Part shown: piece by piece, positions 33,177 to 60,666 of the stretch | Layout: each line of letters begins with the position of its first letter | Position numbering within the stretch: the stretch's first letter is position 1 | Source of the DNA: Candidatus Limnocylindria bacterium | Lineage (GTDB): Bacteria; Chloroflexota; Limnocylindria; QHBO01 | Length of the DNA: 64,000 bases | Assembly (NCBI GenBank): GCA_046717345.1 | Contig: JBKJVN010000134.1 | Location: 3,070-67,069, forward strand | Direction: 5' to 3' | Translations under genes and position numbers: made by a program | The notes under the pieces: model-generated | Told to the model about the DNA's origin: nothing | Database searches by the model: none | Seen by the model: only the letters and a program-made list of their open reading frames with translations

Positions 33177-34445
33177 CTACGGGTACAGGCCCCGCAACGT
33201 GGTGGCCTCCGCGACCCGCGACACGGCGACCATGTAGGCGGCGGTCCGCATGTGGACCTCATGCAGGTCGCTCATCCGATGGACCGCCTCGAAGGCCCGA
33301 TCCATGATCTCCTTCAGGCTCTCGTTGATCCGAGCCTCGGTCCAGAAGAACGACTGCATGTCCTGGACCCATTCGAAGTAGCTCACCGTGACGCCACCCG
33401 CATTGCACAGGATGTCGGGGATCAGGAAGATCCCGCGCTCGTACAGGATCTCATCCGCCTCCGGGGTCGTCGGGCCGTTGGCGGCCTCGGCCACCACCTT
33501 GGCCTGGATCCGGTCCGCGATGCTGCGCGTGATCTGGTTCTCCAGCGCGGCGGGAATGAGAATGTCGCACGGGAGCGTCAGCAGCTCCTCGTTGCTGACC
33601 GCATCCGCGCTGGGGAACCCGGCCACCGTGCCGTGTTCCTGCTTCCACGCGCTGACCTTGGCCGGGTCGAGGCCTCTCGGGTTATGGATTGCGCCGGACG
33701 AGTCGCTGACCGCAACGATGGTCGACCCCTCGGCGGCGAGGAGCTGCGCGGCGATGGACCCGGCGTTGCCGTAGCCCTGGATGGCGACCCGTGCCTCGTC
33801 GAGGTGGAGGTGCAGCTGCCGGGAGGCCTGCTGGAGGGTGAACACCGCGCCCCGGGCGGTGGCCTCGTTGCGCCCCAGCGATCCGCCGATGGCGACCGGC
33901 TTGCCGGTCACGACGCCCGAGATGGTGTAGCCGTTGTGCATGGAGTAGGTGTCCATCATCCAGGCCATGACCTGGGCGTTGGTATTGACATCGGGGGCCG
34001 GGATGTCGCGATCCGGACCGATGAGCGGGCTGATCTCGGTCGTGAAGCGACGGGTCAGGCCTTCCAGCTCGCGCTGCGAAAGCTGCTTGGGATCGACGAT
34101 CACCCCGCCCTTGCCGCCGCCATACGGGATGTTCACGACCGAGCACTTCCAGGTCATCCACATGGCCAGGGCCCGGACCTCGTCCAGGGTGACGTCCTGG
34201 TGGTAGCGGATGCCGCCCTTGGCCGGCCCGCGCGAGAGGTTGTGCTGGACCCGGTAGCCGGTGAAGACCTCCACGTGGCGGTCGTCCATGGTCACCGGGA
34301 AGTGGACCGTCAGCTCGCGCTTGGGAACACGGAGGACTCGGCGCAGGCCCGGATCGAGGTCGAGCTTCTCGGCGGCCTCGTCGAACTGCTGCTGGGCCAC
34401 GGCCCAGATGTTCGGCGCCTCGGCGACAGACGAGTAGTCGGTCAT
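33177..34445 (-). CDS. gdhA: Glutamate dehydrogenase (Glu/Leu/Phe/Val dehydrogenase family), canonical active site
   Basis: GPAKGGIRYH, MTWKCSVVNIPYGGGKGGVIVDPK and the dinucleotide-binding GYGNAGSIAA. Confidence 0.85.
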   Translation of the reverse strand: MTDYSSVAEAPNIWAVAQQQFDEAAEKLDLDPGLRRVLRVPKRELTVHFPVTMDDRHVEVFTGYRVQHNLSRGPAKGGIRYHQDVTLDEVRALAMWMTWKCSVVNIPYGGGKGGVIVDPKQLSQRELEGLTRRFTTEISPLIGPDRDIPAPDVNTNAQVMAWMMDTYSMHNGYTISGVVTGKPVAIGGSLGRNEATARGAVFTLQQASRQLHLHLDEARVAIQGYGNAGSIAAQLLAAEGSTIVAVSDSSGAIHNPRGLDPAKVSAWKQEHGTVAGFPSADAVSNEELLTLPCDILIPAALENQITRSIADRIQAKVVAEAANGPTTPEADEILYERGIFLIPDILCNAGGVTVSYFEWVQDMQSFFWTEARINESLKEIMDRAFEAVHRMSDLHEVHMRTAAYMVAVSRVAEATTLRGLYP

Positions 34446-34551
34446 GGGTAGCGGACACGCTCCGTGGTGGCGGGGTGGAACGGGCGAAAAAGCGCGCCGA
34501 TTATACGGGCGGGGCCGCCGTACGCCTACGTTGCGCGGAGCCGAGCCCCGG

Positions 34552-35745
34552 CTACACCAGCTCGACAGCCAGGGCCACCGCTCCCCCGCCGCCCAGGCAC
34601 AGGGTGGCCAGGCCGCGCGTCCCGCCGCGGTGGCGCAGGGCGTACAGGAGCGTGGTCAGGACTCGCGCTCCCGACGCTCCGATGGGGTGGCCCAGGGCCA
34701 CTGCCCCTCCGTTGACGTTGACCTTGTCCCAGTCGAATCCCAGGGCGTTGCCGTCGGCCAGCACCTGGGCCGCGAAGGCCTCGTTGATCTCGATCAGGTC
34801 GAAATCGGTGAGGGGCACGCTCACCCGTTCGACCAGTCGTTGGACGCCCTCGATCGGCGCCTCGAACAGCCACTCGGGGGCGACGTCGGCCTGGGCGTAG
34901 CCCGTGATGCGGGCCATGGGGCGCAGTCCATCGCGCTCCACGACGTCGGACGAGGCCAGGACCAGGGCCGCGGCGCCATCGGTGATACCCGGTGAGTTGC
35001 CGGCGGTGACCGTGCCGTCATCGATCTGAAAGGCGGGCTTGAGCCTGGCCAGGGCCTCAGCGGACGTGTCGGAGCGGGGGCCCTCATCGGTGTCGACCAC
35101 CGTTGGTTCCTTCTTTCCTGGAACCTCGACCGGGACGATCTCATCGGCGAACGCGCCCGACGCGATGGCCGCCAGGGCGCGCTGGTGGGATCGCAGGGCG
35201 AAGGCGTCCTGCGCCTCCCGGCTGACACCGTGCTTGGCCGCCACCCGCTCGGCGTGGATGCCCATGTGGACGTCGCACGCGCTGCACCACAGCCCGTCGT
35301 ACACCGTCGCGTCCACCAACTCCTGGTTGCCGAGCCGGTATCCGGCCCGTGCGCCCGGCAGCAGATACGGCCCCAGGTTCATGTTCTCCATGCCGCCGGC
35401 GACGATCACGTTCGCGTCGCCAGCCCGGATGGCGGCCGCGCCCAGCATCACGGCCTTGAGGCCTGAGCCACACACCTTGTTGATCGTCGTGGCGCTGACT
35501 GAGTCCGGCAGGCCGGCCTTGCGCGCTGCCTGTCGGGCCGGGGCCTGCCCTGCGCCGGCCTGGATGACCTGGCCCATGAAGACCTCATCCACCTTCTCGC
35601 CGGCGATCCCCGCGCGCTCGACCGCGGCCCGAATGGCGACCGCCCCCAGATCGGTGGCGGGAACAGTGGACAGTCCCCCGCCGAACTTGCCGATCGGCGT
35701 CCGGGCGGCGGACAGGATGTACACGTCCGACGACATCGGCTTCAT
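34552..35745 (-). CDS. Acetyl-CoA C-acetyltransferase (thiolase)
   Basis: YILSAARTPIGKFGG... NKVCGSGLKAV ... C-terminal CLGGGGAVALAVE. Confidence 0.85.
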   Translation of the reverse strand: MKPMSSDVYILSAARTPIGKFGGGLSTVPATDLGAVAIRAAVERAGIAGEKVDEVFMGQVIQAGAGQAPARQAARKAGLPDSVSATTINKVCGSGLKAVMLGAAAIRAGDANVIVAGGMENMNLGPYLLPGARAGYRLGNQELVDATVYDGLWCSACDVHMGIHAERVAAKHGVSREAQDAFALRSHQRALAAIASGAFADEIVPVEVPGKKEPTVVDTDEGPRSDTSAEALARLKPAFQIDDGTVTAGNSPGITDGAAALVLASSDVVERDGLRPMARITGYAQADVAPEWLFEAPIEGVQRLVERVSVPLTDFDLIEINEAFAAQVLADGNALGFDWDKVNVNGGAVALGHPIGASGARVLTTLLYALRHRGGTRGLATLCLGGGGAVALAVELV

Positions 35746-35780
35746 GCTAGTCCGAAAGCCATTCCCAGGGTCGAATCCGC

Positions 35781-37688
35781 TCAGGCCGGGGTGCCCTCAT
35801 CCTCGAACAGCCGATCGATCTGGGTCGGCCAGTTGTCCTCGACCACCCGCAGCTTGGTCTTCAAGGTGGGCGTCAGCTCCCCGTTTTCCTCGTCCAGGGC
35901 GCGGGGCAGCAGCGCGACGCGCCGCGGGCGCTCGAAGACGGCGAAGTCGTCCAGCAGCGTCCGAACGTCACCCTCGATCAGCTGGCGGACCGCTCGCTCC
36001 TCGACCAGCTGCTCAGGCGGCATGCCGCCTAACCCATTGGCCTCGGCCCACGGACCCAGCTCGTCGAAGTTCGGTGCGATGAGCGCCCCGGTGTAGGGCT
36101 GACGGTCTCCCAGGATGACCGCCTGGGCGATGTACTTGCTGGCTGAGAGTGCCGCCTCCATGGGACCCGGCGACACGTTCTTGCCGTTGGCCAGGACGAT
36201 GATGTTCTTGAGCCGATCGGTGATCGTGATCCGCCCGATCGCATCCAGCTCCCCGATGTCGCCGGTATGGAACCAGCCGTCGGGATCGATGGCCTTGGCC
36301 GTCTCCTCGGGCTGGTTGAGATACCCGACCATGATCTGCGGTCCGCGGACCTGGATCTCCCCGGTCTCGGGGTCGATCCGGACCTCGGTCGCCGGCGAGG
36401 GGCGGCCGACCGTCCCGAATAAAAAGTCGCCCGGGCGGTTGATGCTGACCAGCGGGCTGGTCTCGGACAGGCCGTACCCCTCCAGGATGAGGATGCCGAG
36501 GGCGTAAAAGAACTCGCCCACCTCGCGGGACAGGGGTGCCGAGCCGGACACGAAGTAGCGGACGCGGCCGCCGGTCCGAGCCTTCACCTTGTGGTAAACG
36601 AGCCGGTCGGCGATGGCGTGCTGGATCTTCAGCCCCATCCCGTCGGACTTGCCGGCCATGTGGTTCAGGTACCGCTTGCGGCCGACCTCGATCGCCCAGT
36701 GGAAGATGCGACGCCGCAGCGGCGGCGAGGCCTCGACCGATGCCAGAACCCGGCCGTAGACGCGCTCGTAGAAGCGCGGCACGGCGGCCATCACCGTGGG
36801 ACGGACCTCGGCCATGTTGTCCGCCAGGCGCTCGATGAGCGGCTCGGCATAGGCGACCGTGGACCCATGGGCCAGCGGGATGACCTCGCCGGTCAGCCGC
36901 TCGAAGATGTGGGACAGCGGCAGCCACGACAGGAACAGGTCCGTCTCGTAGAAGTCGACGATCTGGACCGCGGCCTCGTAGTTGTACAGGACGCCGGCGT
37001 GGGTGAGCATCGCGCCCTTCGGGTTGGCCGTCGTCCCCGAGGTGTGAATGATCGTCATCAGATGATCGCGGGGGATGGCCCGCCAGCCCGCTTCCCAGGC
37101 CTCGCGCTGGGCCGCATCCGCCTGGCGCGTGGCCAGATCCTCGAGGGTCAGTGTCCCGGCGGGAAACTTGCCGGCTGAATCGAAGGTCACGATGTTGCGC
37201 AAGGTCGGGCACTGGGCACGGATGGATTCGATCTTGTTGGCGAGCTGGGCATTCTCGACAAAGATCAAGCTGGCCCCCACGTTGTTGATGATGAATGCGG
37301 CCTGTCCGGGCTCGGTCTGGGGATAGATCGGGCAGGTGACCGCACCGAGAGCCAGGCCGGCCATATCCGCGACCAGCCACTCGGGGCGCGTGCGGGACAT
37401 GATGCAGATGGTGTCGCCGTCGGCGATGTCCAGGCCCTGGAGGCCCAGCGAAACGCGAGTCACCCAGTCCCAGAATTCGGCGTAGGTCCGGCTCACCCAG
37501 CCGCCGTCCTTCGGCAGCTTCCAGCGCAGGGCCTCCTTGTCGGGCAGGCGCTCAACCGACCGATAGATGAGGTCCACCACGTTGCGGGCCTTCTGGTCGT
37601 CGGGCATCAGCAGCGGCTCGACTTCGTTCCACATGCGTCGCCCAGCCACCGCGGGGGGCTCGGGCGCAGCGGGTACCGCAGTCGTCAT
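35781..37688 (-). CDS. fadD: Long-chain-fatty-acid--CoA ligase (AMP-dependent synthetase)
   Basis: AMP-binding motif IIHTSGTTANPKGAML. Start taken at MTTAVPAAP, which is preceded by GGAGGAGAGGAG. Confidence 0.8.
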   Translation of the reverse strand: MTTAVPAAPEPPAVAGRRMWNEVEPLLMPDDQKARNVVDLIYRSVERLPDKEALRWKLPKDGGWVSRTYAEFWDWVTRVSLGLQGLDIADGDTICIMSRTRPEWLVADMAGLALGAVTCPIYPQTEPGQAAFIINNVGASLIFVENAQLANKIESIRAQCPTLRNIVTFDSAGKFPAGTLTLEDLATRQADAAQREAWEAGWRAIPRDHLMTIIHTSGTTANPKGAMLTHAGVLYNYEAAVQIVDFYETDLFLSWLPLSHIFERLTGEVIPLAHGSTVAYAEPLIERLADNMAEVRPTVMAAVPRFYERVYGRVLASVEASPPLRRRIFHWAIEVGRKRYLNHMAGKSDGMGLKIQHAIADRLVYHKVKARTGGRVRYFVSGSAPLSREVGEFFYALGILILEGYGLSETSPLVSINRPGDFLFGTVGRPSPATEVRIDPETGEIQVRGPQIMVGYLNQPEETAKAIDPDGWFHTGDIGELDAIGRITITDRLKNIIVLANGKNVSPGPMEAALSASKYIAQAVILGDRQPYTGALIAPNFDELGPWAEANGLGGMPPEQLVEERAVRQLIEGDVRTLLDDFAVFERPRRVALLPRALDEENGELTPTLKTKLRVVEDNWPTQIDRLFEDEGTPA

Positions 37689-37710
37689 CGATGTCTCCTC
37701 TCCTCCGGGG

Positions 37711-38583
37711 TCAGGCGATCTTATGTCCCTGCTCGTCGTACCGATAGAAGCCACGACCCGATTTTCGGCCCAGGTGCCCGGCCGCCACCATCTGGCGCAA
37801 CAGCGGGGCGGCCCGGAACTTCGGGTCGCCGAAGCCGCGATACAGGACATCGAGGATGCTCAGCATCACGTCGTTGCCGACGAAGTCAGACAGCTCGAGT
37901 GGGCCGATCGGGTGGTTCAGCCCCAGGCGGGCTCCGTTGTCGATCCCCTCGGCCGTTCCCGTCCCGTCCATGAGAGCGAAGACCGCCTCATTGATGAACG
38001 GCGCCAGCATCCGGTTCACGATGAAGCCCGGGTAGTCCCGGCTCTCAATCACGGTCTTGCCGAGCTGGCCGGCGAACTCATGGCAGGCGGAGGCGGTCGC
38101 CTCGGCGGTCTCCAGACCGCGAATGATCTCGATCAATCCCATGACCGGGACCGGCGAGAAGAAGTGGAGGCCGATGAACCGATCCGGCCGATCGGTGGCC
38201 GTGGCCAGGGCCGTGATGCTGATGGACGAGGTGTTGGTGGCGAAGATCGCCGCCGCGTCGGCGACGTCGGTGATGGCGGCCCAGCTCTCGCGCTTGAGGG
38301 CCTCGTCCTCGAACACCGCCTCGATGACGAGGTCGTGGCCGCCGGCTCCTTCGACCCCCACCCCGGTCTTCACGCGGCCCAGGACCGCGTCCGCGGCCGC
38401 CGGTTCGAGCTTGCCCTTCTCGACCTGGCGAGCCAGATTGCCGGCGATCCGCTGCCGCCCCTTGGCCGCCAGGTCCTCCGTCCGGTCGGCGAGGGTGACG
38501 GCCTTGCCGGCCGCGGCACTGACCTGGGCGATGCCGTGTCCCATCAAGCCCGCGCCGAGGACGAAGACCCGGTCCAGGCTCAT
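37711..38583 (-). CDS. hbd: 3-hydroxybutyryl-CoA dehydrogenase
   Basis: VFVLGAGLMGHGIAQV Rossmann motif and the 3-hydroxyacyl-CoA dehydrogenase fold blocks. Confidence 0.85.
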   Translation of the reverse strand: MSLDRVFVLGAGLMGHGIAQVSAAAGKAVTLADRTEDLAAKGRQRIAGNLARQVEKGKLEPAAADAVLGRVKTGVGVEGAGGHDLVIEAVFEDEALKRESWAAITDVADAAAIFATNTSSISITALATATDRPDRFIGLHFFSPVPVMGLIEIIRGLETAEATASACHEFAGQLGKTVIESRDYPGFIVNRMLAPFINEAVFALMDGTGTAEGIDNGARLGLNHPIGPLELSDFVGNDVMLSILDVLYRGFGDPKFRAAPLLRQMVAAGHLGRKSGRGFYRYDEQGHKIA

Positions 38584-38607
38584 GGCGCGAAAGCCTAGCA
38601 GCCGCCG

Positions 38608-39519
38608 TCAGCCGAGCAGACGGTCGGCGGCACTGAACGGATCCTCGCGTCGCTCGGCCACCGCGGTCACGGCCGCCGCCCAGTCCGCTGACCGAGCCGC
38701 TCGCTCGTATGCGCGGGCGGCCACGGCCCGGCGCAGCAGCTCCCCGGCGCGGGTGCGGACCTGCTCGAGCGTGCGGCCCGCGCGATGGGCCTCGATCGCC
38801 TCGCGCAGCGGCTCGACGCCTTCGCCGGCGACGGCGATGGAGACCAGCACCGGCGGCGCCGGGCGCGACACGCGGCCGCCCGCGGTGGAAAGCATGGCCC
38901 GCAGCTGGCGGGCGGCTCGGTCGGCGCCGGGCCGATCGCCCTTGTTGACCACGATCACGTCGGCGATCTCCAGAAGCCCGGCCTTGATCGCCTGCACCTC
39001 GTCGCCCATCTCGGGAACCTCGACCACGACCGTCGTCTCGGCAAGGGTCGCGATCTCGACCTCGGACTGCCCGGCGCCGACGGTCTCGATGACTACCGGG
39101 TCGTAGCCGGCCGCGTCCAGGGCGGCAGCCGTGAGCCAGGTCGTGGCCGCCAGCCCGCCCAGCGCGCCCCGCGAGGCCATGGACCGCACGAACACGCCGT
39201 CATCGCCGGCGTGGTCCATCATCCGGATCCGGTCACCCATGATCGCGCCGCCGGTCATCGGGGAGCTGGGATCGACGGCGATGACGCCCACCCGCCGGCC
39301 GCGGCTCCGCCACGCTGCCACGAGGGCATTGACGAGAGTCGACTTGCCGCTTCCCGGAGGCCCGGTGATCCCCACCAGGTGGGCGTCACGTCCGGCGGCG
39401 ATGAGGGCTCCGAGCTCGGACGGCGCCAGCGCCCCGTCCTCGAGATCGGTCAGCAGCCGGGCCAGCGCCCGGCGGTCGCCGGCCTGCGCGTCGCGCAGCC
39501 GCTCCGCCAGCTCAGGCAC
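38608..39519 (-). CDS. meaB: Methylmalonyl-CoA-mutase-associated G-protein chaperone (MeaB/ArgK family)
   Basis: [13 protein letters not shown]-loop, [21 protein letters not shown] start 2 nt after the stop of the B12-binding subunit gene. Confidence 0.8.
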
Positions 39520-39928
39520 GCCGACGGGCGTGCTCCCGGAAGTAGGCCGCCACCTGGCCGATGGTCGTCCCCGGGCCGAACACCTCCGCCACGCCGGCCG
39601 CCTTGAGCTTGGCGACATCGGCGTCCGGGATGATCCCGCCGGCCGCCACCAGCACGTCGTCAAGCCCCTTCCCTCGGACGAGCTCCACGATCCGGGGCAG
39701 CAGGGTCATGTGGGCACCGGACAGGATGGACAGGCCGACCACGTCGACGTCCTCCTGCTCGGCGGCATCGGCCACCATCTCCGGGGTCTGGCGCAGGCCG
39801 GTGTAGATGACCTCGAACCCCTCGTCGCGAAGGCCGCGCGCCAGCACCTTGGCTCCGCGGTCGTGACCGTCCAGGCCGGGCTTGGCGAGCAGGACGCGGA
39901 TCGGGCGGGAGGACGCGTCGGCGGTCAT
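39512..39928 (-). CDS. Acyl-CoA mutase small subunit (cobalamin-binding domain)
   Basis: 138 aa. [29 protein letters not shown]...[11 protein letters not shown] (the DxHxxG B12-binding signature). Confidence 0.8.
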
Positions 39929-40248
39929 CGACCCGGCGATTCTAGCCCGGTCGCGTCGCCCGGCACGAGCCCGTCGATCGTGGCCGCCATGTCGACGTCA
40001 CGCCCGGTCAAGCCCCCGGCGGCCTTGGTGGTGAGCCGAAACGTGACCCGTCGCCAGCGGATGTCGAAATCGGGATGGTGATCGGCCGCCTCGGCGGCAT
40101 CGGCCACTGCGTTGACCAGGGCCATCGCGTCCCGGAAGGAGGGGCAACGGACCGTCCGGACCAGGGTCTCCCCCTCGCGTTGCCATTCCGGCAGTGCCCG
40201 GAGTGCGCCGCCGATCTCATCGGAGGACAGCAGCGGGGCGTACGGCAT
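39925..40248 (-). CDS. Pterin-4-alpha-carbinolamine dehydratase
   Basis: ...[47 protein letters not shown]. Start is taken at MPYAPLL. The longer ORF overlaps folE. Confidence 0.7.
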
Positions 40249-40264
40249 CGGTTCGGCGGTCGGC

Positions 40265-40846
40265 CTACCGCTCGGACGAGCGGCCAATGAAGGTCAGGAA
40301 CTCGGCCCGGGTCTTGGGGTCGCTCCGAAATGTGCCGAGCATGGCGGAGGTGACCATGGTGGCGCCGGGCCGGCGCACCCCGCGCATGGCGATGCACAGG
40401 TGGGTCGTCTCGAGCACGACCCCCACCCCCTTGGGTTCCAGTCGGGTCATCAGGAAATCGGCGATCTGCTGGGTCAGCCGCTCCTGGATCTGGAGCCGGT
40501 GGGCGAACAGGTCCACCACACGCGGAATCTTCGACAGACCGATGACCGTGCCCCGCGGCAGGTATCCGACGTGGGCGCGACCAAAGAACGGGATCAGGTG
40601 GTGCTCGCACAGGGAGTACAGCTCGATGTCGCGGACGACGACCATCTCGTCGTAGTCGACGTCGAAGGCTGCGCCTTGCAGGAGCGTGTCGGGGTCAGTC
40701 CGATACCCTGCGGTCAGCTGCTCCAGGGTGCGCCGCACCCGACCCGGCGTGCCGCGCAGACCGTCGCGGTCGGGGTCCTCGCCGATCTCGGCCAGGAGGG
40801 TCCGCACCGCCGCCTCGAGTGGAGATGTCCGCGCATCGGGGTCCAT
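40265..40846 (-). CDS. folE: GTP cyclohydrolase I
   Basis: ELYSLCEHHLIPFFGRAHVGYLP and the following FolE blocks. Confidence 0.85.
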   Translation of the reverse strand: MDPDARTSPLEAAVRTLLAEIGEDPDRDGLRGTPGRVRRTLEQLTAGYRTDPDTLLQGAAFDVDYDEMVVVRDIELYSLCEHHLIPFFGRAHVGYLPRGTVIGLSKIPRVVDLFAHRLQIQERLTQQIADFLMTRLEPKGVGVVLETTHLCIAMRGVRRPGATMVTSAMLGTFRSDPKTRAEFLTFIGRSSER

Positions 40847-49534: not shown

Positions 49535-50007
49535 GCCAGGCGCCGGGCGAGCTTCCCGCCTTCGGCACGCCCGGGCGGTGCCTGAAGTGCGGACGCCCGA
49601 TCGACCTCCAGGAGACGATGTGCGATGTCTGCAACCGCGCCGGCATGACGGCGCCGGCCGCGACCCAGATGCACGGAACGGTGGCGGTGGCGATCGTGGG
49701 CTCGGTCGTCGCCATGGGCGTGGTGGCCTCGATCCTGGTGGGTGGGGTCGGGCCGTTCACCAGTGACGTGCTGGCGGTGGGCCCGGTGGCCGAGGCATCG
49801 GTCGTGGTGACGCTGCAGGTCAACAACCAGGGATCGCGGGCGGGACGCGCTCGGTGTGAGCTGACCGCCGTCAACGGAGCGGGCAGCCCGGTGGCGCGGA
49901 CGGTGGCCCTGTCGCCGCAGGTGCCGGCCGGGGGCTCCGTTCCCTTCGACGCCCAGATCCCGGGATTGACCACCGACCCGTCCCGGGTCGTGGTCCGCTG
50001 CCAGTGA
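49531..50007 (+). CDS. Zinc-ribbon plus single-TM membrane protein
   Basis: ATGA overlap with the previous gene. CLKCGRPIDLQETMCDVCN zinc ribbon, then a TM helix VAVAIVGSVVAMGVVASILVG. Confidence 0.5.
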   Translation: MSQAPGELPAFGTPGRCLKCGRPIDLQETMCDVCNRAGMTAPAATQMHGTVAVAIVGSVVAMGVVASILVGGVGPFTSDVLAVGPVAEASVVVTLQVNNQGSRAGRARCELTAVNGAGSPVARTVALSPQVPAGGSVPFDAQIPGLTTDPSRVVVRCQ

Positions 50008-51695
50008 CAGCTCTTCGCGCCATCCTCATTGGCGGAGTCGCGATCGTGGCGGCCATCGCCGTCATTTCCCAGCTCTTCGGCGCCAGCCCGTCACTGTTTC
50101 CCGACCCGGTGTTCGACCAGGCGGTGTACGACGAAGCGGGGGTGCTGGACGCCGCCACCGAAACGATCCTCGAGCAGCGGATCGATGCCCTCGAGGCGCG
50201 GAGCGGAGCGGAGGTCGCCATCTACCTCCAGGTCGACCCGAGCCAGGACTTCGAGACCAATGTCGCCTTGGCTGAGGCCCTGATGAACGAGTGGGGCGTC
50301 GGCCGCGCCGGATACGACGATGGATTCGTGATCCTGGTCAGCTTCGAAGAGGACCTGGTCCACGGGGTGATCAGCACCTATGCCGGCAGCGGCTTCAAGG
50401 CCGCGTACCTGTCGGTCGATGACCAGGAGCGTCTCATCAATCAGGTCATGGCGCCCGACTTTCGCGCGGGGCAGGTGGGGGCCGGCCTGATGGCTGCCCT
50501 AGAGGAGGCGGAGGCCGCCGTGACCCCCGCAGCCACCGAGCGCCTGGAGACGTACCGGCAGGTCAACGCCCTCATCGGCATCCCGGGCGGGATCCTGGCC
50601 CTGGTCCTGACCGGCGGGACGGCGTTCGTCGCCTGGCGCCGTCACGGGGATGATCCGGAGCTCATCGATTCGCGTTCGGTGCTCATGGCCGGGCCGCCCG
50701 CCGAAATGACTCCGCCGCTGGCGACGGTCCTCCGTGAGGGGCGGGCCGGATCGAACGCCCTTCGCACACTCCTCGTGGAGCTCGCTGGCGGCGGCCTCAT
50801 CCGGTTCCGGAACCTGGATCGAGCCAAGGAGGTCAAGTCCACCGACAATCCGGATCCCCTGACCGATCCAGCCCTGGACGTGCTGGACCCGCCAGTCGAC
50901 CGGCCACTGCCGTCGGGCCCACTGGGCGAGGCCTACCGCGAGCTTGTGGTCCGCGGCGGGTCCATGCGGTCACTGCGCCGGGAAGCGCTGTGGGGGGTCA
51001 ACCAGGCGCTCGATCCGATGAAGCGTCAGCTCGAGCAGGAGGCGGTCCGCCTGGGGTGGCTGACGCGCCTCCCGACCCCGGAAATCACCCGCTGGGTGTT
51101 CCTCGGGGTCGTTGAGGCCGCCGTCGGCGTCGGAGCCATCTTCCTGGGCAACACGATCCCGATGAGCGGGCTGACCCTGGTTGGAGGCGCGCTCGTCGCC
51201 GGAGGATTGGTGACGGGGGCCTTCGGCCTTCAGATGTCCAAGCGAACGCCGAACGGAGCGTACGTGGACGCCATGCTGAAGGCTTACCGCCGCACTCTCG
51301 AGAAGACCTTGGAGCAGGCGCGGTCCATGGCCGAAGTGGTGCAGGATCCGACCGTGCGGGTGCTGGCCGACACGCCCGACAAGGCCGTGGTGTGGGGCGT
51401 GGCACTCGGACTGCACCAGGAGGTGGGCGAGGTCCTGGCCCGTGAGATGGCCGACCCCCAGACCCAGGCCATGAGCCAATCCTCGGGCGCCTATTACCCG
51501 ATGTGGTTGGGCTCATCCACAGCGTCGGGGGCCGGCGATGGCGGCGGAGGCCTCTTCTCGGGGTCGGGCATCCCCGACATCGGAGGCATGTTGGGGACCG
51601 TGGGCAGCATCGGGTCCGCCCCGTCGTCGTCCAGCGGCGGAGGCTTCGGTGGCGGCGGAGGCGGCGGGGGCGGGGGCGCCAGCGGCGGCTTCTAG
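50004..51695 (+). CDS. TPM-domain / DUF2207-type membrane protein with a Gly-rich C-terminal tail
   Basis: GTGA overlap with the previous gene. The N-terminal TPM domain has YDEAGVL...IDALEARSGAEVAIYLQ. There are internal TM helices. Confidence 0.6.
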   Translation: MTALRAILIGGVAIVAAIAVISQLFGASPSLFPDPVFDQAVYDEAGVLDAATETILEQRIDALEARSGAEVAIYLQVDPSQDFETNVALAEALMNEWGVGRAGYDDGFVILVSFEEDLVHGVISTYAGSGFKAAYLSVDDQERLINQVMAPDFRAGQVGAGLMAALEEAEAAVTPAATERLETYRQVNALIGIPGGILALVLTGGTAFVAWRRHGDDPELIDSRSVLMAGPPAEMTPPLATVLREGRAGSNALRTLLVELAGGGLIRFRNLDRAKEVKSTDNPDPLTDPALDVLDPPVDRPLPSGPLGEAYRELVVRGGSMRSLRREALWGVNQALDPMKRQLEQEAVRLGWLTRLPTPEITRWVFLGVVEAAVGVGAIFLGNTIPMSGLTLVGGALVAGGLVTGAFGLQMSKRTPNGAYVDAMLKAYRRTLEKTLEQARSMAEVVQDPTVRVLADTPDKAVVWGVALGLHQEVGEVLAREMADPQTQAMSQSSGAYYPMWLGSSTASGAGDGGGGLFSGSGIPDIGGMLGTVGSIGSAPSSSSGGGFGGGGGGGGGGASGGF

Positions 51696-52777: not shown

Positions 52778-53743
52778 CTAGCCCGACCCGGGCTCGGCGA
52801 TGGTCAGGATGCGGGCCGGGTTCTCGACCGTCATCCGCTCCAGCTCGCCCTCCCCGACGGCCGCCGTCCGGAGCGCCGGCAGGAAATGCTGCTGGAGGTA
52901 GGTGTACCCAAAGCCGCCATTCACCTTGAGCTGCATGTCATGGCATACGTCCTGGCTTAGCAGGATCTGCGCGCCGAAACCGCGGTCCAGCAACTCGACC
53001 AGCAGCTCCACGATCCGCGGCTCGCGTGGCTCGTCCACCGGGTCGAACCGATGACCGAGAAAATCGAACTCGAGGTTCGCGCCACGCTCGAGGATGGCGA
53101 GGTAGTGATCGAGGTCCGGCCACGAGTCGGCGTGACCGATCACGACCCGCTGCGGATCAACTCCCTCGTCCAGGAAGATCTGCAGCTGCGCGCGGCCAAC
53201 CGCGGACTGGACGCCATGGGTGGTGATCGCCATCCCCGTTCGCTGGGCGGCGCGGGCGGCTGCCCGGTGCACCCGCTCCTCGATGGCGCTGACCCAGGGC
53301 TTGTCCGTTCCGATCTCACCGATGATGCCGGGCCGGACGCCCGTCTCGCCGACCCCCTGCTCGAACTCGCCCACCAGCTCATCGGCCAGGTCGTCCACGG
53401 TGCGCCGATCGATCCCGGCCTCAACCGGGTAGTACGGCGCGTGATACCAGCCACATCCCATCACGATCTGAACGCCGGTGCGGTTTGCCAGGCGCCGCAG
53501 CCGCTCTGGATCGCGGCCGATGCCGGGCAGCGTGACATCGACCAGCGTGTGTCCGCCTCGGCGCCGAAAGTCGCGTAGCTCCTCGGCCACCGTCAGTTCG
53601 TCGGCGGCCAGCTCCCAGTAATCGAACCGGCCCGGGATGTGCCACAGCGATATCGTCGTGTGCTCGTGGGGAAGCGCAAACCCGACTCGCTCCGCGGGGA
53701 TCGGTCCAGAAACGGTCATCACCCGGGGGGCCATGGCTGTACC
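52778..53743 (-). CDS. Phosphotriesterase-family (PTER/Php-like) amidohydrolase
   Basis: FALPHEHT (metal-binding HxH), GIIGEIG, HGVQSA...HAD blocks. The upstream remainder of the 1090-aa ORF is antisense to other genes. Confidence 0.8.
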   Translation of the reverse strand, partial: GTAMAPRVMTVSGPIPAERVGFALPHEHTTISLWHIPGRFDYWELAADELTVAEELRDFRRRGGHTLVDVTLPGIGRDPERLRRLANRTGVQIVMGCGWYHAPYYPVEAGIDRRTVDDLADELVGEFEQGVGETGVRPGIIGEIGTDKPWVSAIEERVHRAAARAAQRTGMAITTHGVQSAVGRAQLQIFLDEGVDPQRVVIGHADSWPDLDHYLAILERGANLEFDFLGHRFDPVDEPREPRIVELLVELLDRGFGAQILLSQDVCHDMQLKVNGGFGYTYLQQHFLPALRTAAVGEGELERMTVENPARILTIAEPGSG

Positions 53744-53926
53744 TCGGTTGGGGGCGTCGGTCGGGATCAGCGAGCCGCCGACGTCTCGGTGAAGGTTGGC
53801 GCGGCCATGTTGCCACTCCGCGCCCGCGACGCGCAAAAGGGCTACCCCGGAGTATCGGCAAGTGCTACAACACCCCGGACGGCCGCCCAAGTCTGACGGC
53901 CCACACCATTGGAGGTCCGTGGAGCC

Positions 53927-54562
53927 ATGAACCAGCGGCCAACAGGGGTCACCATCCTCGCTATCCTGGCGTTTGTAGGAGGCATCCTCTCGATACTCGG
54001 CGCTCTTGCCCTGCTGGGTCTCGGTGGCTTCCTGGCAGGTGCCGAGTTCGGAGGACTGGCGGTCTTCTTCGGAATATATGCGTTGGTCTGGGGAGCGCTG
54101 GCGCTCTGGATCGGTTGGGGCTTCTGGCAGCTGCGGCCGTCCGCGTGGCGATGGGGCATCATCCTGATGGTGATCGGGGCAGTGATCACGATCATCCAGA
54201 TCCCCCTCGGTTACAGCGGCGGCATTGCCAGCGCGGCTATCTCGGTCGCCATCGACCTGGCAGTCATCTACTACCTGACCACGCCCGCCGTCCGCGCCGC
54301 CTTCGGACAGTCGACTTCTGGCGGCATGATGGACGCGGTCATGGGGGCCTTTGGCATGGGCGGGGGAGGATCGGCCGCGGCAACTTCGGCTCCGACCGCG
54401 GCCCCGTCGGCCGAACCGCCGGCCATCAGCGCGCCGCCCGAACCGCCGGCCATGAGCCCGCCAGCGGCCAGCTCGTGGAGTGGCTCGGCCGGGTCGTCGA
54501 CCGGCGGCGAGACGTCGTCTGGCGGCGAGGCGGCCGCGCGCGATGAGGACGAAAAACTCTAG
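53927..54562 (+). CDS. Hypothetical 4-TM membrane protein with an Ala/Pro/Ser-rich C-terminal tail
   Basis: ORF. GGAGG lies 11 nt upstream of the ATG (MNQRPTGVTILAILAF...). Confidence 0.5.
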   Translation: MNQRPTGVTILAILAFVGGILSILGALALLGLGGFLAGAEFGGLAVFFGIYALVWGALALWIGWGFWQLRPSAWRWGIILMVIGAVITIIQIPLGYSGGIASAAISVAIDLAVIYYLTTPAVRAAFGQSTSGGMMDAVMGAFGMGGGGSAAATSAPTAAPSAEPPAISAPPEPPAMSPPAASSWSGSAGSSTGGETSSGGEAAARDEDEKL

Positions 54563-54658
54563 CGATTCCATCCACCCCGCACACGACACCTCTCGTGGGC
54601 GCCCGGCGGTCCGCCGCCGAGGCGCCCACAATGGTTCTGTGACCGTCGCCGTCGCCAT

Positions 54659-55927
54659 ATGACCGCCGACCGGCCCACCGACAACGGCGCCCAGCTGTGG
54701 GCGGGCGCCCAGGCCGAGCTCGACGCCGTGGCCGAGCGCCTGGGCCTGGACGACGGGATGCACCGCGTCCTGCGCGTCCCGAAGCGCGAGCTGGAGGTCC
54801 ACTTCCCGGTGCGCTTCGATGATGCCCACGTGGAGGCGGTCACCGGCTGGCGCGTCCACCACAACATCAACCGCGGACCCTCCACCGGTGGCGTGCGCTA
54901 CACCGCCGACCTGACCCTGGACATTGTCCGCGCCAACGCGATGTGGAACACCTGGAAGGCGGCCCTGGTCGAGATCCCGTACGGGGGCGCCTTCGGCGGC
55001 GTGGTGATCAACCCCAAGAAGCTGTCCGCCCACGAGCGGGAGGGCTTGACGCGCCGCTACACGACCGAGATCAGCCCCCTCATCGGTCCCAGCCAGGACA
55101 TCCCCATGCCGGACGTCAACACCGACGAGCAGACCATGGCCTGGATGATGGACACCTTCTCGATGCATCGCGGCTACACGATCCGCGGCGTGGTGACCGG
55201 CAAGCCTCCGTCCATCGGCGGCTCGCGCGGACAGCGGGAGGCCGTCAGCCGCGGGGCGCTGCGGGCGATCCAGGCCGTGGCTGGCCAGCACGCGGTGGCA
55301 CTGGACGGGGCCCGCGTCGTGGTGCAGGGCTTCGGGCGGGTGGGCACCATCCTGGCCGAGATGCTGGCCGCGGCCGGCGCCCGGGTCGTGGCCCTTGCGG
55401 ACGACCGCCACGCGGTCCGGAATGCCAACGGCATCGCCATCGGGTCGGCCGTCGCGCACATGGCCGAGCGGGATACGATCGCTGAGCTGCGGGGTGCCGA
55501 AGCCATGGACCGCCGCGAGGTCTTCGCAGAGCCATGCGAGATCCTCATCAGCGCCGGCCTCTCGCACCAGATCACCCGGGCCAACGCACCCGGGATCCAG
55601 GCCCGGATCGTGGCCGAGGCCGCGAATGGGCCGACCACGCCGGAGGCGGATCGCATCCTGCGCGACAAGGGGGTCATCGTCATCCCCGACATCCTGGGAA
55701 CGGCGGGTGGCTTCGTGGTCGGCTACTTCGAGTGGGTGCAGGACCTGCAGTCCTTCTTCTGGACCGATGCCGAAGTGGCGGCTGAGCTCGACCGCGTGAT
55801 GGATGACGCCGCGCGCGCGGTGATGGCGGCCGCCGAGCAGCACCACGCGGACCTGCGCACGGCCGCCCTGATGGTGGCCGTGGGGCGCACGGCCGACGCG
55901 ACCACCCTCCGCGGCCTCTACCCGTAG
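54659..55927 (+). CDS. Glu/Leu/Phe/Val-dehydrogenase-family paralog with substituted active-site lysines (probable pseudo-enzyme)
   Basis: Full-length GDH fold (422 aa). [10 protein letters not shown] stands in place of GPxKGGxRxH, and [15 protein letters not shown] in place of the catalytic GGGKGG motif. The nucleotide sequence at about 54985-55000 was checked by hand. Confidence 0.75.
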
Positions 55928-55985
55928 GGGTGGGTGGCGACGTCGCGGAGTTGCCACTCGAAGAGCCAGCCTCGAAGATGACAGC

Positions 55986-57602
55986 GTGAGCGAAGGACCG
56001 GGCCCCGAGCGCAAGCCACGCTTCACGACCCAGTCGGGGGTCGAGATCAATCGCGTCTACACCGCTGCCGACCTGCCCGATTGGGATCCCGCGCGCGACT
56101 TGGGCGAGCCAGGCCAGCCACCGTTCACACGGGGTATCCACGCCACCGGCCACCGGGGGCGGCTGTGGACGATGCGGATGTTCGCCGGGTTCGGCGCGGC
56201 CGAAGATACGAATGCCCGCTTCCGGCGCCTCATCGCGGAGGGTGGGACCGGTCTATCAATCGCGTACGACATGCCAACCCTGTACGGGTACGACCACGAC
56301 GACCCGCATGCCGCGGGCGAGTTCGGGACCTGCGGCGTGGCGGTCAGCAGCCTGGCCGACATGGAAATCCTGTTGTCGGGGCTGCCGATCGGCGAGATCA
56401 GCACCTCGATGACCATCAACTCGCCGGCGGCCATGATCTGGGCCATGTACCTGGTCGCCGCCGAGAAGGCAGGCGTCCCCCGCGCCGAGCTCACCGGCAC
56501 GCTCCAGAACGACATCCTCAAGGAGTTCATCGCCCAGAAGGAGTACATCTTCCCGCCTGCCCCCTCGCTGCGCCTGGTCACCGACACGGTCGAGTTCGGG
56601 ACCCGCGAGATGCCGCGCTGGAACACGATCAGCATCAGCGGCTATCACATCCGGGAGGCGGGCTCGACGGCGGTCCAGGAGCTGGCGTTCACGATCGCCG
56701 ACGGGATCGCGTACGTGGAGGACGCCCGGGCCCGCGGACTGCGCTTCGACGACTTCGCGCCACGCCTGTCGTTCTTCTTCAACAGCCACAACGACTTCTT
56801 CGAGGAGGTCGCGAAGTTCCGGGCCGCGCGCCGGATGTGGCACCGGTTGTGCGTCGAGCGCTTCGGGGCCGAGAACGAGCGCTCGACCTGGATGCGGTTC
56901 CACACCCAGACCGCGGGCGTGTCGCTGACGGCCCAACAGCCGCTGAACAACCTGACCCGGGTCGCGATCCAGGCCCTGGCCGCGGTCCTGGGTGGCACCC
57001 AGTCGCTGCATACCGATGCGTACGACGAGGCGTGGGCGGTTCCCTCGGAAGCGGCCGCCCTGCTCGCTCTGCGCCAGCAGCAGATCCTGGCCGAGGAGTC
57101 GGGGGTGGCGAACACGGTGGACCCGTTGGGGGGCTCGTACTTCGTGGAGGCACTCACCAACCAGACCGAGGCCGCTGCCTGGGACTACATCCGGCGCATC
57201 GACGAGATGGGCGGCATGCTGCGGGCCGTGGAGGACGGGTTCCCGCAGGCCGAGATCGCGGACGCGGCCTATGTCCAGAGCCGCGCCCTGGAAGACGGGG
57301 AGCACCAGATCGTGGGGGTCACCCGGTACGTCGACCGCGACGAGGAGCTGGGCGTCCCGCTGCTGGAGATCACTCAGGACATGGAGCGGCGCCACCTGGA
57401 CCGGTTGGCGCGGGTCCGGGCCGAGCGTGACGCGGACGCGCATGCGCGGGCCGTGACCCGGTTGCAGGAGGAGGCGGCCCGACCGGCCGTCAATCTCATG
57501 CCGGCCATCGTCGAGGCGGTCGAGGCCTACGCCACCATCGGCGAGATGTGCGGCGTTCTACGCGGTGTCTTCGGGGAGTACCGCGAGCCCCTCGCCGTCT
57601 GA
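55986..57602 (+). CDS. Acyl-CoA mutase large (substrate-binding TIM-barrel) subunit, with isobutyryl-CoA-mutase-like signature residues
   Basis: 538 aa. [12 protein letters not shown] has Phe where MCM has the substrate Tyr. [12 protein letters not shown] has Gln where MCM has Arg. No fused B12 domain. Confidence 0.85.
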
Positions 57603-57608
57603 GCGCCG

Positions 57609-58480
57609 TGGACGTTCACCTCGTCGACGCCACCTTCGAGCTGTTCCGCGCCTACCACTCCCGGCCGGCTGAGCGCGGCCCGGATGGCCGCCCGGTCAAC
57701 GCCGTCCGCGGCCTGGTCGACTCCCTGCTCAGCCTGCTGCGCGAGCCGGATGTGACCCACGTCGGTGCCGCCACCGACCACGTCATCGAAAGCTGGCGCA
57801 ATGACGTGTATCCGGGCTACAAATCCAGCGCCGGGGTCCCGCGCGATCTGCTGGCCCAATTCGCCGATGCCGAGCGCGCCATTCGGGCGCTGGGCATCAC
57901 CTGCTGGGCCATGGTCGAGGATGAGGCCGACGACGCCCTGGCCACGGTCACCGCCCGGCTGGCGACCGACCCTGGGGTCGAGCGGATCGTGATCTGCAGC
58001 GTGGACAAGGATCTTGCCCAGTGTGTCCGCGGGGATCGGATCGTCCTCCGCGACCGGATGCGCAAGATCACCTACGACGAGGCGGGGGTGGTCTCCAAGT
58101 TCGGCGTCCGCCCGACCAGCATCCCCGACTACCTGGCCCTCGTCGGCGACAGCTCCGATGGCTATCCGGGCCTCCCCGGTTGGGGCGCCCGGAGCGCGGC
58201 CGCGGTCTTGGCCCGGTGGGAGCACCTGGAGTCCATCCCCGACGATCCGCTGACCTGGGAGGTCGACGTGCGCCGGACGGGACGGTTGGCCGCGACCCTG
58301 CGCCAGCACCGGGACGATGCCCTCCTATACCGCCGGCTGGCCATCCTGGGCACCGATTCGGATGCTCCCGGCACGCTGGCCGACCTCGCTTGGCGCGGCG
58401 TGCCGCGCGAGCCATTCCTGGCCCTGTGCGCGGAGTTCGGCTTCGAGTCGGTTCCGGGGCGCGTCCACCGCTGGGCCTGA
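57609..58480 (+). CDS. 5'-3' exonuclease (FEN / Pol I N-terminal-domain-like)
   Basis: GTG start 6 nt after the mutase stop. Conserved acidic clusters (DATFELFRAYH, DEADD, SVDKDL, GDSSDGYPGLPG H3TH). Confidence 0.7.
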
Positions 58481-59706: not shown

Positions 59707-60666
59707 CTACCCCGCTGCCCGGGCCTCCCGCCACGCGGTCACCGCCAGGTCGGCGGTGGCCAGGTCCTGGATCGCCAGTCCCACGCTCTTGAAGATGGTG
59801 ATGGCCGCCGGGTCACGGCTCGCGGCCCAGCCGGGCGCCAGGCTCCCGATCTCGACGTACGCGTCGGCGTCCAGCTGGCCGGCGGCAACCGCGGCGGCCA
59901 GGTCGCCCGCCTCGGCGGCGGCCGCAGCGCGCGAGTCCACGGCCACCAGCGCGGCGCGGCCAAAGGCCTCGGGCGGGACTTCGACCATCCCCATCCGGAA
60001 CGACCCGATGGCGTTGACATGGGCACCTGGCTCCAGCCACGCGGCTTCGAACACCGGCGTCTGGGACGGTGTGACGCAGCACACGATGTCGGCGCCACGG
60101 ACCGCCGCCTCGGGCGAGTCCACCGCCCGCACCGTGGCGGGCACCTGCGCATCCATCGACGCCGCGAACGCCTCTCGGGGCGCCGGAGTGCGGGAATAGA
60201 CGCGGACCTCGCGGATCGGCCGCGCGGCGAGCACGGCCCTGATCTGCCACTCGGCCTGCACCCCGGCGCCGAACAGGGCCATCACGGTGGCGTCGGAACG
60301 GGCCATGAGCCGCGCGCCGACCCCGGACGCGGCGCCGGTCCGCATGGCCGTCACGGTCGGTGCGTCGAGCTGGAACGCAGGTTCGCCGGTTTGGGCGTCG
60401 AACCAGGTCACGATGCCCTGGATGGTGGGCAGACCCCGCTCCGGGTTGCCCGGGACCCAGCTGATGAGCTTGACGGCGGCCCCGGACCCACCCTCGCGCA
60501 CGGCGGGCATGAGAACCAGCAACCCGCCACCACCGAGCTCGACGTGGTGACGCAACGGGGAGCGGTCCCGGCCGGCCGCCACGTCACGGTACGCGGCATC
60601 GACCGCGTCGAGCAGGCGCTCGATGGGAACCAGCGAGCGCAGGCTGGCGGCGTCAATCAGCTCCAT
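59707..60666 (-). CDS. Ornithine cyclodeaminase / mu-crystallin family protein
   Basis: 319 aa. Rossmann ALFGAGVQAE and OCD-family conserved blocks. Confidence 0.7.
   Translation of the reverse strand: MELIDAASLRSLVPIERLLDAVDAAYRDVAAGRDRSPLRHHVELGGGGLLVLMPAVREGGSGAAVKLISWVPGNPERGLPTIQGIVTWFDAQTGEPAFQLDAPTVTAMRTGAASGVGARLMARSDATVMALFGAGVQAEWQIRAVLAARPIREVRVYSRTPAPREAFAASMDAQVPATVRAVDSPEAAVRGADIVCCVTPSQTPVFEAAWLEPGAHVNAIGSFRMGMVEVPPEAFGRAALVAVDSRAAAAAEAGDLAAAVAAGQLDADAYVEIGSLAPGWAASRDPAAITIFKSVGLAIQDLATADLAVTAWREARAAG

Follow-up and report, generated by a model that had tools for sequence, protein, structure and literature searches.

Can a glutamate dehydrogenase (GDH) paralog that has lost its catalytic lysine still serve the cell that carries it, or is it a redundant copy in decay? 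The question is raised by one gene in a 64,000-nucleotide stretch of DNA (hereafter the window) from a member of Limnocylindria, an abundant uncultured Chloroflexota class of soil and freshwater. A preliminary description of the window had taken this gene for a likely pseudo-enzyme with a new regulatory or binding role. We conclude that the gene, here called DEG (degenerate GDH paralog), is a real, conserved, class-wide pseudo-GDH and most likely a convergent case of the inactive regulatory GDH paralog. The precedent is Thermus thermophilus GdhA, a catalytically inactive regulatory subunit that forms a GdhA4-GdhB2 hexamer and mediates leucine activation (PMC9570180; bioRxiv 10.1101/2025.10.31.685773). 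Its published leucine allosteric site comprises R135, D166, R415/R420, Y418/Y423 and the C-terminal Pro (PMC9570180). A literature search for Limnocylindria and GDH found no work linking the two. The window contains two GDH paralogs:

54659..55927, plus strand: DEG, 422 amino acids, ATG start, with the domains ELFV_dehydrog_N and ELFV_dehydrog
33177..34445, minus strand: canonical GDH paralog, 422 amino acids, all catalytic residues present, proposed catalytic partner of DEG

DEG is a full-length GDH paralog without the catalytic lysine

DEG is a member of the ELFV (Glu/Leu/Phe/Val) dehydrogenase superfamily, with both Pfam domains and the two-domain GDH fold. It scored 155.8 bits against PF02812 (gathering cut-off 25.3) and 199.5 bits against PF00208 (cut-off 23.4), and its full-length identity to the canonical GDH of its own genome is about 57-58%. 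The best matches among solved structures were the hexameric GDHs of Thermotoga maritima, Burkholderia and T. thermophilus (GdhB), with E values of about 1e-116.

The codons at the key positions were read in the DNA: T76 is ACC (54884-54886), T82 is ACC, K100 is AAG, F112 is TTC (54992-54994) and D152 is GAC. The canonical paralog matches the PROSITE pattern PS00074 (IPYGGGKGGVIVDP), whereas DEG deviates from it at the lysine only, which is Phe112. Codons, domains and alignment thus agree with the preliminary description that a full-length paralog has lost two of the three canonical lysines and carries Phe in place of the PROSITE active-site Lys. The motifs of DEG, all on the plus strand, are listed below with their state in the subfamily of DEG-like sequences.

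54875..54904: first Lys/His motif (canonical GPAKGGIRYH); the gamma-carboxylate Lys is Thr76 (Thr, Ser, Ala, Asn or Tyr in the subfamily) and His82 is Thr
54944..54958: WNTWK (context MWNTWK); the alpha-carboxylate Lys100 is kept and invariant, and canonical Met97 is Asn (94%)
54974..55000: IPYGGAFGG (canonical IPYGGGKGG); the PS00074 catalytic Lys is Phe112 (Phe 62%, Met 29%, Ala 8% in the subfamily)
55052..55057: Arg132-Arg133, both invariant; the first aligns with R134 of the reconstructed GdhA, likely the published leucine-site 'R135'
55103..55123: PMPDVNT; the catalytic Asp152 is kept, and the canonical pocket residue Ala150 is Met (Ser, Met or Thr in the subfamily)
55151..55153: Asp165, 100% invariant, equivalent to the leucine-site D166 of T. 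thermophilus GdhA
55325..55345: QGFGRVG; the Rossmann GxGxxG is 99-100% conserved, and the canonical Asn is an invariant Arg227
55397..55405: Ala-Asp248-Asp249 at the end of beta2; the ribose-binding Asp248 is kept (99%), and Asp249 is new and invariant (canonical Ser)
55550..55558: SAG; canonical Pro298 is Ser and Ala300 is Gly (100%)
55700..55723: TAGGFVVG, second half of the substrate pocket; Asn348 is Thr, Val352 is Phe (Phe, Leu or Met in the subfamily) and Ser355 is Gly
55901..55924: C-terminal TTLRGLYP; R418, Y421 and P422 correspond to the GdhA leucine-site residues R415, Y418 and P419

The GdhA sequence (PDB 3AOE, chains E-H) was recovered by a PDB query with a motif segment of the representative P0189 and then at full length. 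The reconstructed GdhA reads GPAKGG, WMTLK, LPFGGAAGG and LGPDLG at its motifs, and it carries two Arg residues, at 133 and 134, followed by Tyr at 135. The second Arg, R134, aligns with Arg132 of DEG, and the published R135 numbering is probably offset by one relative to this sequence. P0189 is itself related to T. thermophilus GdhA; P0145, another candidate for a GdhA-like protein, was ruled out by the PDB search.

The substrate pocket is replaced and the leucine-type site is kept

We aligned 153 sequences of the subfamily with canonical GDHs, 121 from Limnocylindria and 109 diverse representatives. Twelve positions that are near-invariant in the canonical GDHs are changed in the subfamily, the majority of them in the substrate pocket:

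Position 76: canonical Lys, subfamily Thr, Ser or Ala
Position 89: canonical Glu, subfamily Leu or Val
Position 93: canonical Leu, subfamily Asn
Position 97: canonical Met, subfamily Asn (94%)
Position 112: canonical Lys, subfamily Phe, Met or Ala
Position 150: canonical Ala, subfamily Ser, Met or Thr
Position 227: canonical Asn, subfamily Arg (100%)
Position 298: canonical Pro, subfamily Ser
Position 300: canonical Ala, subfamily Gly (100%)
Position 348: canonical Asn, subfamily Thr or Ser (Thr 90%)
Position 352: canonical Val, subfamily Phe, Leu or Met
Position 355: canonical Ser, subfamily Gly

The list of changes in the preliminary description was thus incomplete, since ten further canonical-invariant positions are changed. 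Its Lys to Thr change stands, but the accompanying His to Thr change has no diagnostic value: the His of 'RYH' is found in only about 60% of the canonical representatives. Likewise, the GxGxxG fingerprint of the Rossmann region is kept, as had been stated, but the replacement of Asn by Arg227 inside this motif had been overlooked.

In the canonical sets, the catalytic Lys and the gamma-carboxylate Lys are each 100% conserved, and the Ser of VSYFEW is 98-100% conserved. In 155 subfamily sequences, the catalytic position, which we take to be the equivalent of bovine K126 and Clostridium symbiosum K125, is Phe, Met or Ala; some members read GGAAGG. The two gamma-carboxylate binders (Lys of GPxKGG and Ser of VSYFEW) are T76 and G355 in DEG. 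Three of the four substrate-carboxylate positions are replaced (K76, N348 and S355) and K100 alone is kept; the alpha-carboxylate K100 and the catalytic D152 are both invariant in the subfamily. From known structures of GDH and leucine dehydrogenase, we take positions 76, 112, 150, 348, 352 and 355 to line the substrate pocket, presumably corresponding to C. symbiosum K89, K125, A163, V377, S380 and the Asn of 'NAGG'. As read from the replacements at these pocket positions, the glutamate site is dismantled and made more hydrophobic in the subfamily.

The C-terminal TxLRGLYP is the same in the degenerate and canonical Limnocylindria families, and the leucine-site equivalents Arg132/133, Asp165, Arg418, Tyr421 and Pro422 are 100% invariant in both. 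Between the two paralogs, identity is highest in the N-terminal oligomerisation domain (70%, versus 50% in the NAD domain).

The lysine losses are class-wide and the gene is under purifying selection

We searched 5.8 billion proteins, and all of the best 120 matches (64-100% identity) share the lysine losses: the first Lys is Thr, Ser or Ala, the catalytic Lys is Phe, Met or Ala and the His is Thr; none has lost the middle Lys or the Asp. In a scan of the species representatives of GTDB, 35 loci of 58-95% identity were found, again with the same losses in every one (35/35), and the next loci below the subfamily (46-51% identity) are canonical GDHs of other phyla. Because the pattern recurs in 120/120 database homologs and 35/35 species-level loci, it is far beyond chance, and the losses are not strain-specific. 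Being common to all orthologs down to 58% identity, they also support the preliminary reading of a likely pseudo-enzyme.

The 35 loci belong to Limnocylindria/Chloroflexota metagenome-assembled genomes, save a few oddly labelled bins. Four loci (L003, L024, L036 and L040) contain the Limnocylindria-type syntenic block with the degenerate paralog under the labels Zixibacteria, Methylomirabilota, Pleomorphomonadaceae or Gemmatimonadales, and are probably mis-binned or mislabelled. A search of 50%-identity representatives was rejected as a boundary of the subfamily: at this level the subfamily merges with canonical GDHs, and the best representative, 52% identical, is canonical.

No stop codon was found in 18 orthologous coding sequences. 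The ratio of nonsynonymous to synonymous substitution rates (dN/dS, NG86 method) was 0.08-0.21 for the subfamily versus 0.07-0.17 for the canonical paralog, values for which dS is probably underestimated and omega overestimated, given about 69% GC and strong codon bias. Close pairs of the subfamily gave 0.08-0.13, and matched genome pairs gave 0.17-0.21 versus 0.13-0.17 for the canonical gene. In these matched pairs, dN of the degenerate gene was 1.6-2.3 times that of the canonical gene, and the degenerate copies were 79-80% identical versus 86-87% for the canonical copies. Thus, the degenerate gene evolves somewhat faster, yet is clearly under purifying selection. The preliminary view that this is not decay is borne out by the intact frames and these ratios.

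DEG arose within its own lineage

Neighbour-joining trees recovered the subfamily as monophyletic with 100% bootstrap support. In a first tree, its grouping with the canonical Limnocylindria GDHs received just 57% support, because other long-branch sequences without the catalytic Lys interfered. When these were removed, the subfamily joined the canonical Limnocylindria clade in 94/100 bootstraps and T. thermophilus GdhA in 0/100. The trees show an independent origin: the subfamily groups with the canonical GDH of its own lineage and never with GdhA. The identity of DEG is 57% to the canonical GDH of its own genome versus 40% to GdhA. As judged from these trees, DEG is a convergent pseudo-GDH that was duplicated within its own lineage before the class diversified.

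Among the best 150 representatives of GDH-like proteins at 50% identity, 16 have no catalytic Lys and carry Met, Ala, Gln, Ser, Gly, Trp, Cys or Arg instead (P0126, P0138, P0140, P0153, P0189, P0191, P0194, P0196, P0205, P0228, P0238, P0248, P0249, P0260, P0269 and P0270). Most of them also swap the first Lys for Leu, Ile, Met, Tyr or Gln. Dead GDH paralogs appear recurrent and polyphyletic across prokaryotes, since these 16 sit on separate long branches.

The predicted structure keeps the GDH fold

A model of DEG was built with AlphaFold2 from a shallow alignment of 34 rows (pTM 0.78; pLDDT 75.5, and above 90 in the NAD domain). A Foldseek search with the model retrieved GDH structures at TM-scores of 0.74-0.81, with 3aoe_A, one chain in the entry for the T. 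thermophilus hetero-hexamer, as the top match (0.81). As modelled, the GDH fold of DEG is intact. The pLDDT fell below 50 over residues 72-81 and 109-115, which are the two mutated glycine-rich loops, and over residues 135-186. The low confidence probably stems from the shallow alignment; the collapse at the loops could also reflect a rearranged or mobile former active site.

A canonical GDH is encoded on the same contig

Four genomes were checked, and in each of them a canonical GDH lies 20-28 kb from the degenerate paralog on one contig. Besides the window, both paralogs were found on contigs of 323,922 bp and 43,055 bp and on the 2.09-Mb chromosome OY969424. The canonical P0280, P0281 and P0283 share these contigs with the degenerate P0027, P0024/L009 and L011, at distances of about 22-28 kb.

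DEG lies near one half of a split mutase

The preliminary description had placed DEG directly upstream of an acyl-CoA mutase gene and had regarded this arrangement as conserved. The genes concerned are as follows:

55986..57602, plus strand: acyl-CoA (methylmalonyl-CoA-type) mutase large subunit, N-terminal substrate domain only, without the B12 domain (PF01642; TIGR00641, 725 bits)
38608..39928, minus strand: mutase B12-binding small subunit (39512-39928) and MeaB GTPase (open reading frame (ORF) 38608-39663), in a same-strand cluster ending in the canonical GDH
52778..53719, minus strand: phosphotriesterase-family gene, the divergent upstream neighbour of DEG, at 450 bp or less in 26/35 species
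53909..54562, plus strand: small predicted membrane protein with an Ala/Pro/Ser-rich tail, between the phosphotriesterase-family gene and DEG; found in the window's own clade only, with a 204-amino-acid counterpart in L006

In the window, the mutase large subunit begins 58 bp 3' of DEG on the same strand, and no terminator-like site was found in this gap. Direct adjacency is therefore correct for the window. Conservation of the pair holds only loosely: among the loci with enough sequence, the mutase lies less than 5 kb downstream on the same strand in 34/35, the other locus, L027, having none within 6 kb. In these 34 species loci, the two genes are directly adjacent (less than 450 bp) in 13, and are separated by 1.2-2 kb in 8 and by 3.4-4.9 kb in 13, so that 1.2-4.9 kb is inserted in 21. 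In the loci inspected, the inserts encode an adenylate/guanylate cyclase, an acyl-ACP-type desaturase, an opposite-strand S9 peptidase and LuxR/AraC-type regulators.

The 15-kb neighbourhood is collinear throughout the class. In divergent members, the block comprises OpuAC, DUF1684, TPM/DUF2207, Bac_luciferase, dodecin, PHP, the phosphotriesterase-family gene (divergent), the GDH-like gene, the mutase, a 5'-3' exonuclease, SpoIID and an ornithine cyclodeaminase gene (opposite strand). Because the whole neighbourhood is collinear and the inserts are unrelated, the proximity of DEG and the mutase is mostly inherited gene order, not a maintained operon or evidence of coupling. A DEG-mutase operon was down-weighted in view of the unrelated and opposite-strand inserts.

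The mutase is split, with the B12 subunit and MeaB 16 kb away from the large subunit. They belong to a minus-strand run (33177-40846) of GTP cyclohydrolase I, pterin-4a-carbinolamine dehydratase, the B12 subunit, MeaB, 3-hydroxyacyl-CoA dehydrogenase, acyl-CoA synthetase, thiolase and the canonical GDH. Each GDH paralog thus neighbours one mutase half in at least two lineages (the window and L092), an arrangement that may be coincidence or co-regulation and that keeps a link to the mutase under consideration. The cluster of B12 subunit, MeaB and canonical GDH is kept in L092, and is rearranged or lost in L091 and the OY969424 clade.

Several features of the flanking genes were recorded. The mutase large-subunit ORF is 538 amino acids here, with a shorter N-terminus, versus 582-585 in most orthologs (474 in L006). 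Its 3' end overlaps the start of the listed exonuclease ORF (57548-58480) by 55 nt, and the exonuclease start is probably further downstream. An antisense ORF of 1090 amino acids (52778-56050, minus strand) that runs through the GDH-like gene is an artefact of 69% G+C, in which only the 3' third (52778-53719) is real; other very long antisense ORFs in the window are artefacts of the same kind. In most other species, no gene lies between the phosphotriesterase-family gene and the divergently oriented GDH-like gene. The membrane protein at 53909-54562 had no Pfam or NCBIfam match. The TPM_phosphatase/DUF2207 membrane protein at 50004-51695 has a long Gly/Ser-rich tail (…GGGFGGGGGGGGGGASGGF) and is conserved in the syntenic block. 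An ornithine cyclodeaminase/mu-crystallin family gene (59707-60666, minus strand), encoding an NAD-dependent amino-acid enzyme, is a conserved block member downstream of the mutase and exonuclease.

Possible roles of DEG

The role we favour, to which we give an even chance, is that of a GdhA-like non-catalytic regulatory subunit that co-assembles with the canonical GDH and modulates its activity. The lineage duplicated its own GDH and retained the copy under purifying selection; catalytic and substrate-binding residues were lost, and the copy would have kept the leucine-type allosteric site between subunits together with the hexamer-forming scaffold. DEG would join the canonical GDH (33177-34445) in mixed hexamers and tune its activity with no catalysis of its own. 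It may also sense NAD(H), because its dinucleotide-binding fingerprint is intact, unlike that of GdhA. A regulatory role is plausible because GdhA itself is an inactive regulatory GDH subunit without the catalytic Lys; for the same reason, the role proposed in the preliminary description is acceptable as regulatory but would not be new in kind. To our knowledge, GdhA is the only inactive GDH regulatory subunit that has been characterised. By analogy with GdhA and from the role of the lost Lys, we infer that DEG is catalytically inactive; we further infer hetero-oligomer formation and a regulatory effect. The invariance of the leucine site and the C-terminus, which holds despite the 1.6-2.3 times faster dN, counts in favour of such a subunit. 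Other points weigh against it. The genes of the two paralogs are separated by 20-28 kb and do not form one operon, and their co-occurrence rests on four genomes. The fixed pocket replacements (Arg227, Gly300 and Asp249 at 100%, Asn97 at 94%, Thr348 at 90%) look as if a new ligand site had been selected for rather than function simply lost, and would not be needed by a purely structural subunit. The higher conservation of the N-terminal domain adds little, since ordinary GDH orthologs typically show the same.

The retained NAD signature and the nearby mutase bring in another kind of pseudo-enzyme. The alanine-dehydrogenase-like protein (ADLP; TT_C1082) of T. thermophilus has Ala for the catalytic Lys and keeps NAD(H) binding; loaded with NAD+, it binds and inhibits the CoA transferase encoded next to it in a hexamer-tetramer complex, and the adjacency of the two genes is reported to be conserved and co-transcribed. 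By this precedent of a Lys-less, NAD(H)-binding protein encoded beside its acyl-CoA-enzyme target, DEG could be a redox-sensing accessory of another enzyme, with the mutase as the obvious candidate. GxGxxG, Asp248 and Asp249 are 99-100% conserved in the subfamily, the Asp being lost in GdhA; the mutase is close by on the same strand in all but one of the loci, with a short gap free of terminator-like sites in the window; and the other mutase half is clustered with the canonical GDH in the window and L092. However, direct adjacency is confined to 13/34 species, the inspected inserts hold unrelated genes of which the opposite-strand ones break co-transcription, L027 lacks a nearby mutase, the OY969424 clade has lost the link between B12 subunit, MeaB and canonical GDH, and proximity is expected by descent in a collinear block. 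We consider this role doubtful, but it is the main alternative. A more specific version, which we regard as unlikely, is that the former active-site cleft was rebuilt as a sensor site, with the invariant Arg227 in GxGRxG, Asp249 and Gly300, together with Asn97, Thr348, the hydrophobic filling at 112, 150 and 352 and the intact NAD fingerprint, and that the split methylmalonyl-CoA mutase is controlled through this site in response to the NAD+/NADH redox state or a hydrophobic amino acid. If true, DEG would parallel ADLP as a regulator, but would come from another dehydrogenase family and have a B12 enzyme as its target.

The same fixed replacements in the cleft (Arg227, Gly300, Asp249, Asn97 and Thr348; 90-100%, type-II-like), with strong purifying selection and the kept cofactor fingerprint, would also suit a neofunctionalised enzyme, in which a remodelled hydrophobic pocket with Lys100, Asp152 and the new Arg227 catalyses another NAD(P)-dependent reaction without the classical Lys. 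Imine or oxo-acid reduction, or a reaction on a non-glutamate substrate, would be examples. We find this improbable: the only characterised Lys-less homolog, GdhA, is inactive (PMC9570180), and constraint is loose at 112 (Phe/Met/Ala), 76 (Thr/Ser/Ala/Asn/Tyr), 150 (Ser/Met/Thr) and 352 (Phe/Leu/Met), which is easier to reconcile with hydrophobic filling than with a precise catalytic site. Nor do we know of any active ELFV-family enzyme that lacks the catalytic Lys. That DEG is a decaying pseudogene, a redundant second GDH copy damaged in one strain, is refuted by the comparison of orthologs. The degenerate copy does evolve faster than the canonical one, in identity as well as in dN, but its losses are found in every species-level genome and homolog down to 58% identity, the ORF is intact everywhere at dN/dS of 0.08-0.21, about 110 positions are invariant across the subfamily and the subfamily is monophyletic.

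Proteins of this kind carry the label 'glutamate dehydrogenase (NAD(P)+)' or 'Glu/Leu/Phe/Val dehydrogenase', so that metabolic reconstructions of these organisms over-count GDH activity. The search of representatives suggests that about one in ten of the diverse GDH-like clusters has no catalytic lysine, and dead paralogs may be a common and overlooked form of regulation at the carbon-nitrogen branch point. In DEG, the NAD fingerprint, the invariant Arg227 and the loose linkage to a split B12 mutase are distinctive and testable features.

Comparison with known systems

Canonical hexameric GDHs of the T. maritima, T. thermophilus GdhB and Burkholderia type (PDB 1B26, 3AOG and 4XGI), the best matches in sequence and structure (E about 1e-116, TM about 0.8), share with DEG the two-domain architecture, the length and the C-terminal tail, but every catalytic or substrate-binding residue replaced in DEG is present in them. 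RocG and GudB of Bacillus subtilis are active GDHs that moonlight as regulators or partners, for example in the GltAB-GudB counter-enzyme complex (PDB 7MFM); 7MFM and 9A5J were among the structure matches of DEG. The likeness lies in the use of a GDH hexamer as a protein-binding regulatory scaffold, and the difference is that RocG and GudB are still active enzymes.

ADLP and DEG are both pseudo-enzymes derived from amino-acid dehydrogenases: another residue stands in for the catalytic Lys, and the NAD-binding signature is retained, in DEG at the sequence level. Both belong to clades with varied residues in place of the Lys, and both are encoded near an acyl-CoA-metabolising enzyme. However, ADLP is of the alanine dehydrogenase family and DEG of the ELFV family (no alanine dehydrogenase domain was matched in DEG in the domain search), and DEG adjoins the mutase in 13/34 species only.

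GdhA is the closest parallel in kind. Both proteins are full-length GDH paralogs in which the catalytic Lys of GGxKGG has become non-basic (Ala in GdhA; Phe, Met or Ala here), and both are changed at the equivalents of positions 150, 227 (Gln in GdhA), 298, 348 and 352. Neither has lost the middle Lys, the catalytic Asp or the leucine-site residues, among them the C-terminal RGxYP, and both coexist with a catalytically complete canonical paralog. DEG differs in being only 40% identical to GdhA and of independent origin. It has lost the gamma-carboxylate binders Lys76 and Ser355, both of which GdhA keeps, whereas it has kept the Rossmann beta2 Asp, which GdhA lost, and has added the invariant Arg227 and Asp249. 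DEG and the canonical gene are 20-28 kb apart, not side by side; gdhA and gdhB of T. thermophilus are reportedly adjacent. If DEG acts as we propose, the GdhA-type solution, in which a GDH is duplicated, its catalytic lysine removed and its scaffold and allosteric site kept, would have evolved independently in Limnocylindria.

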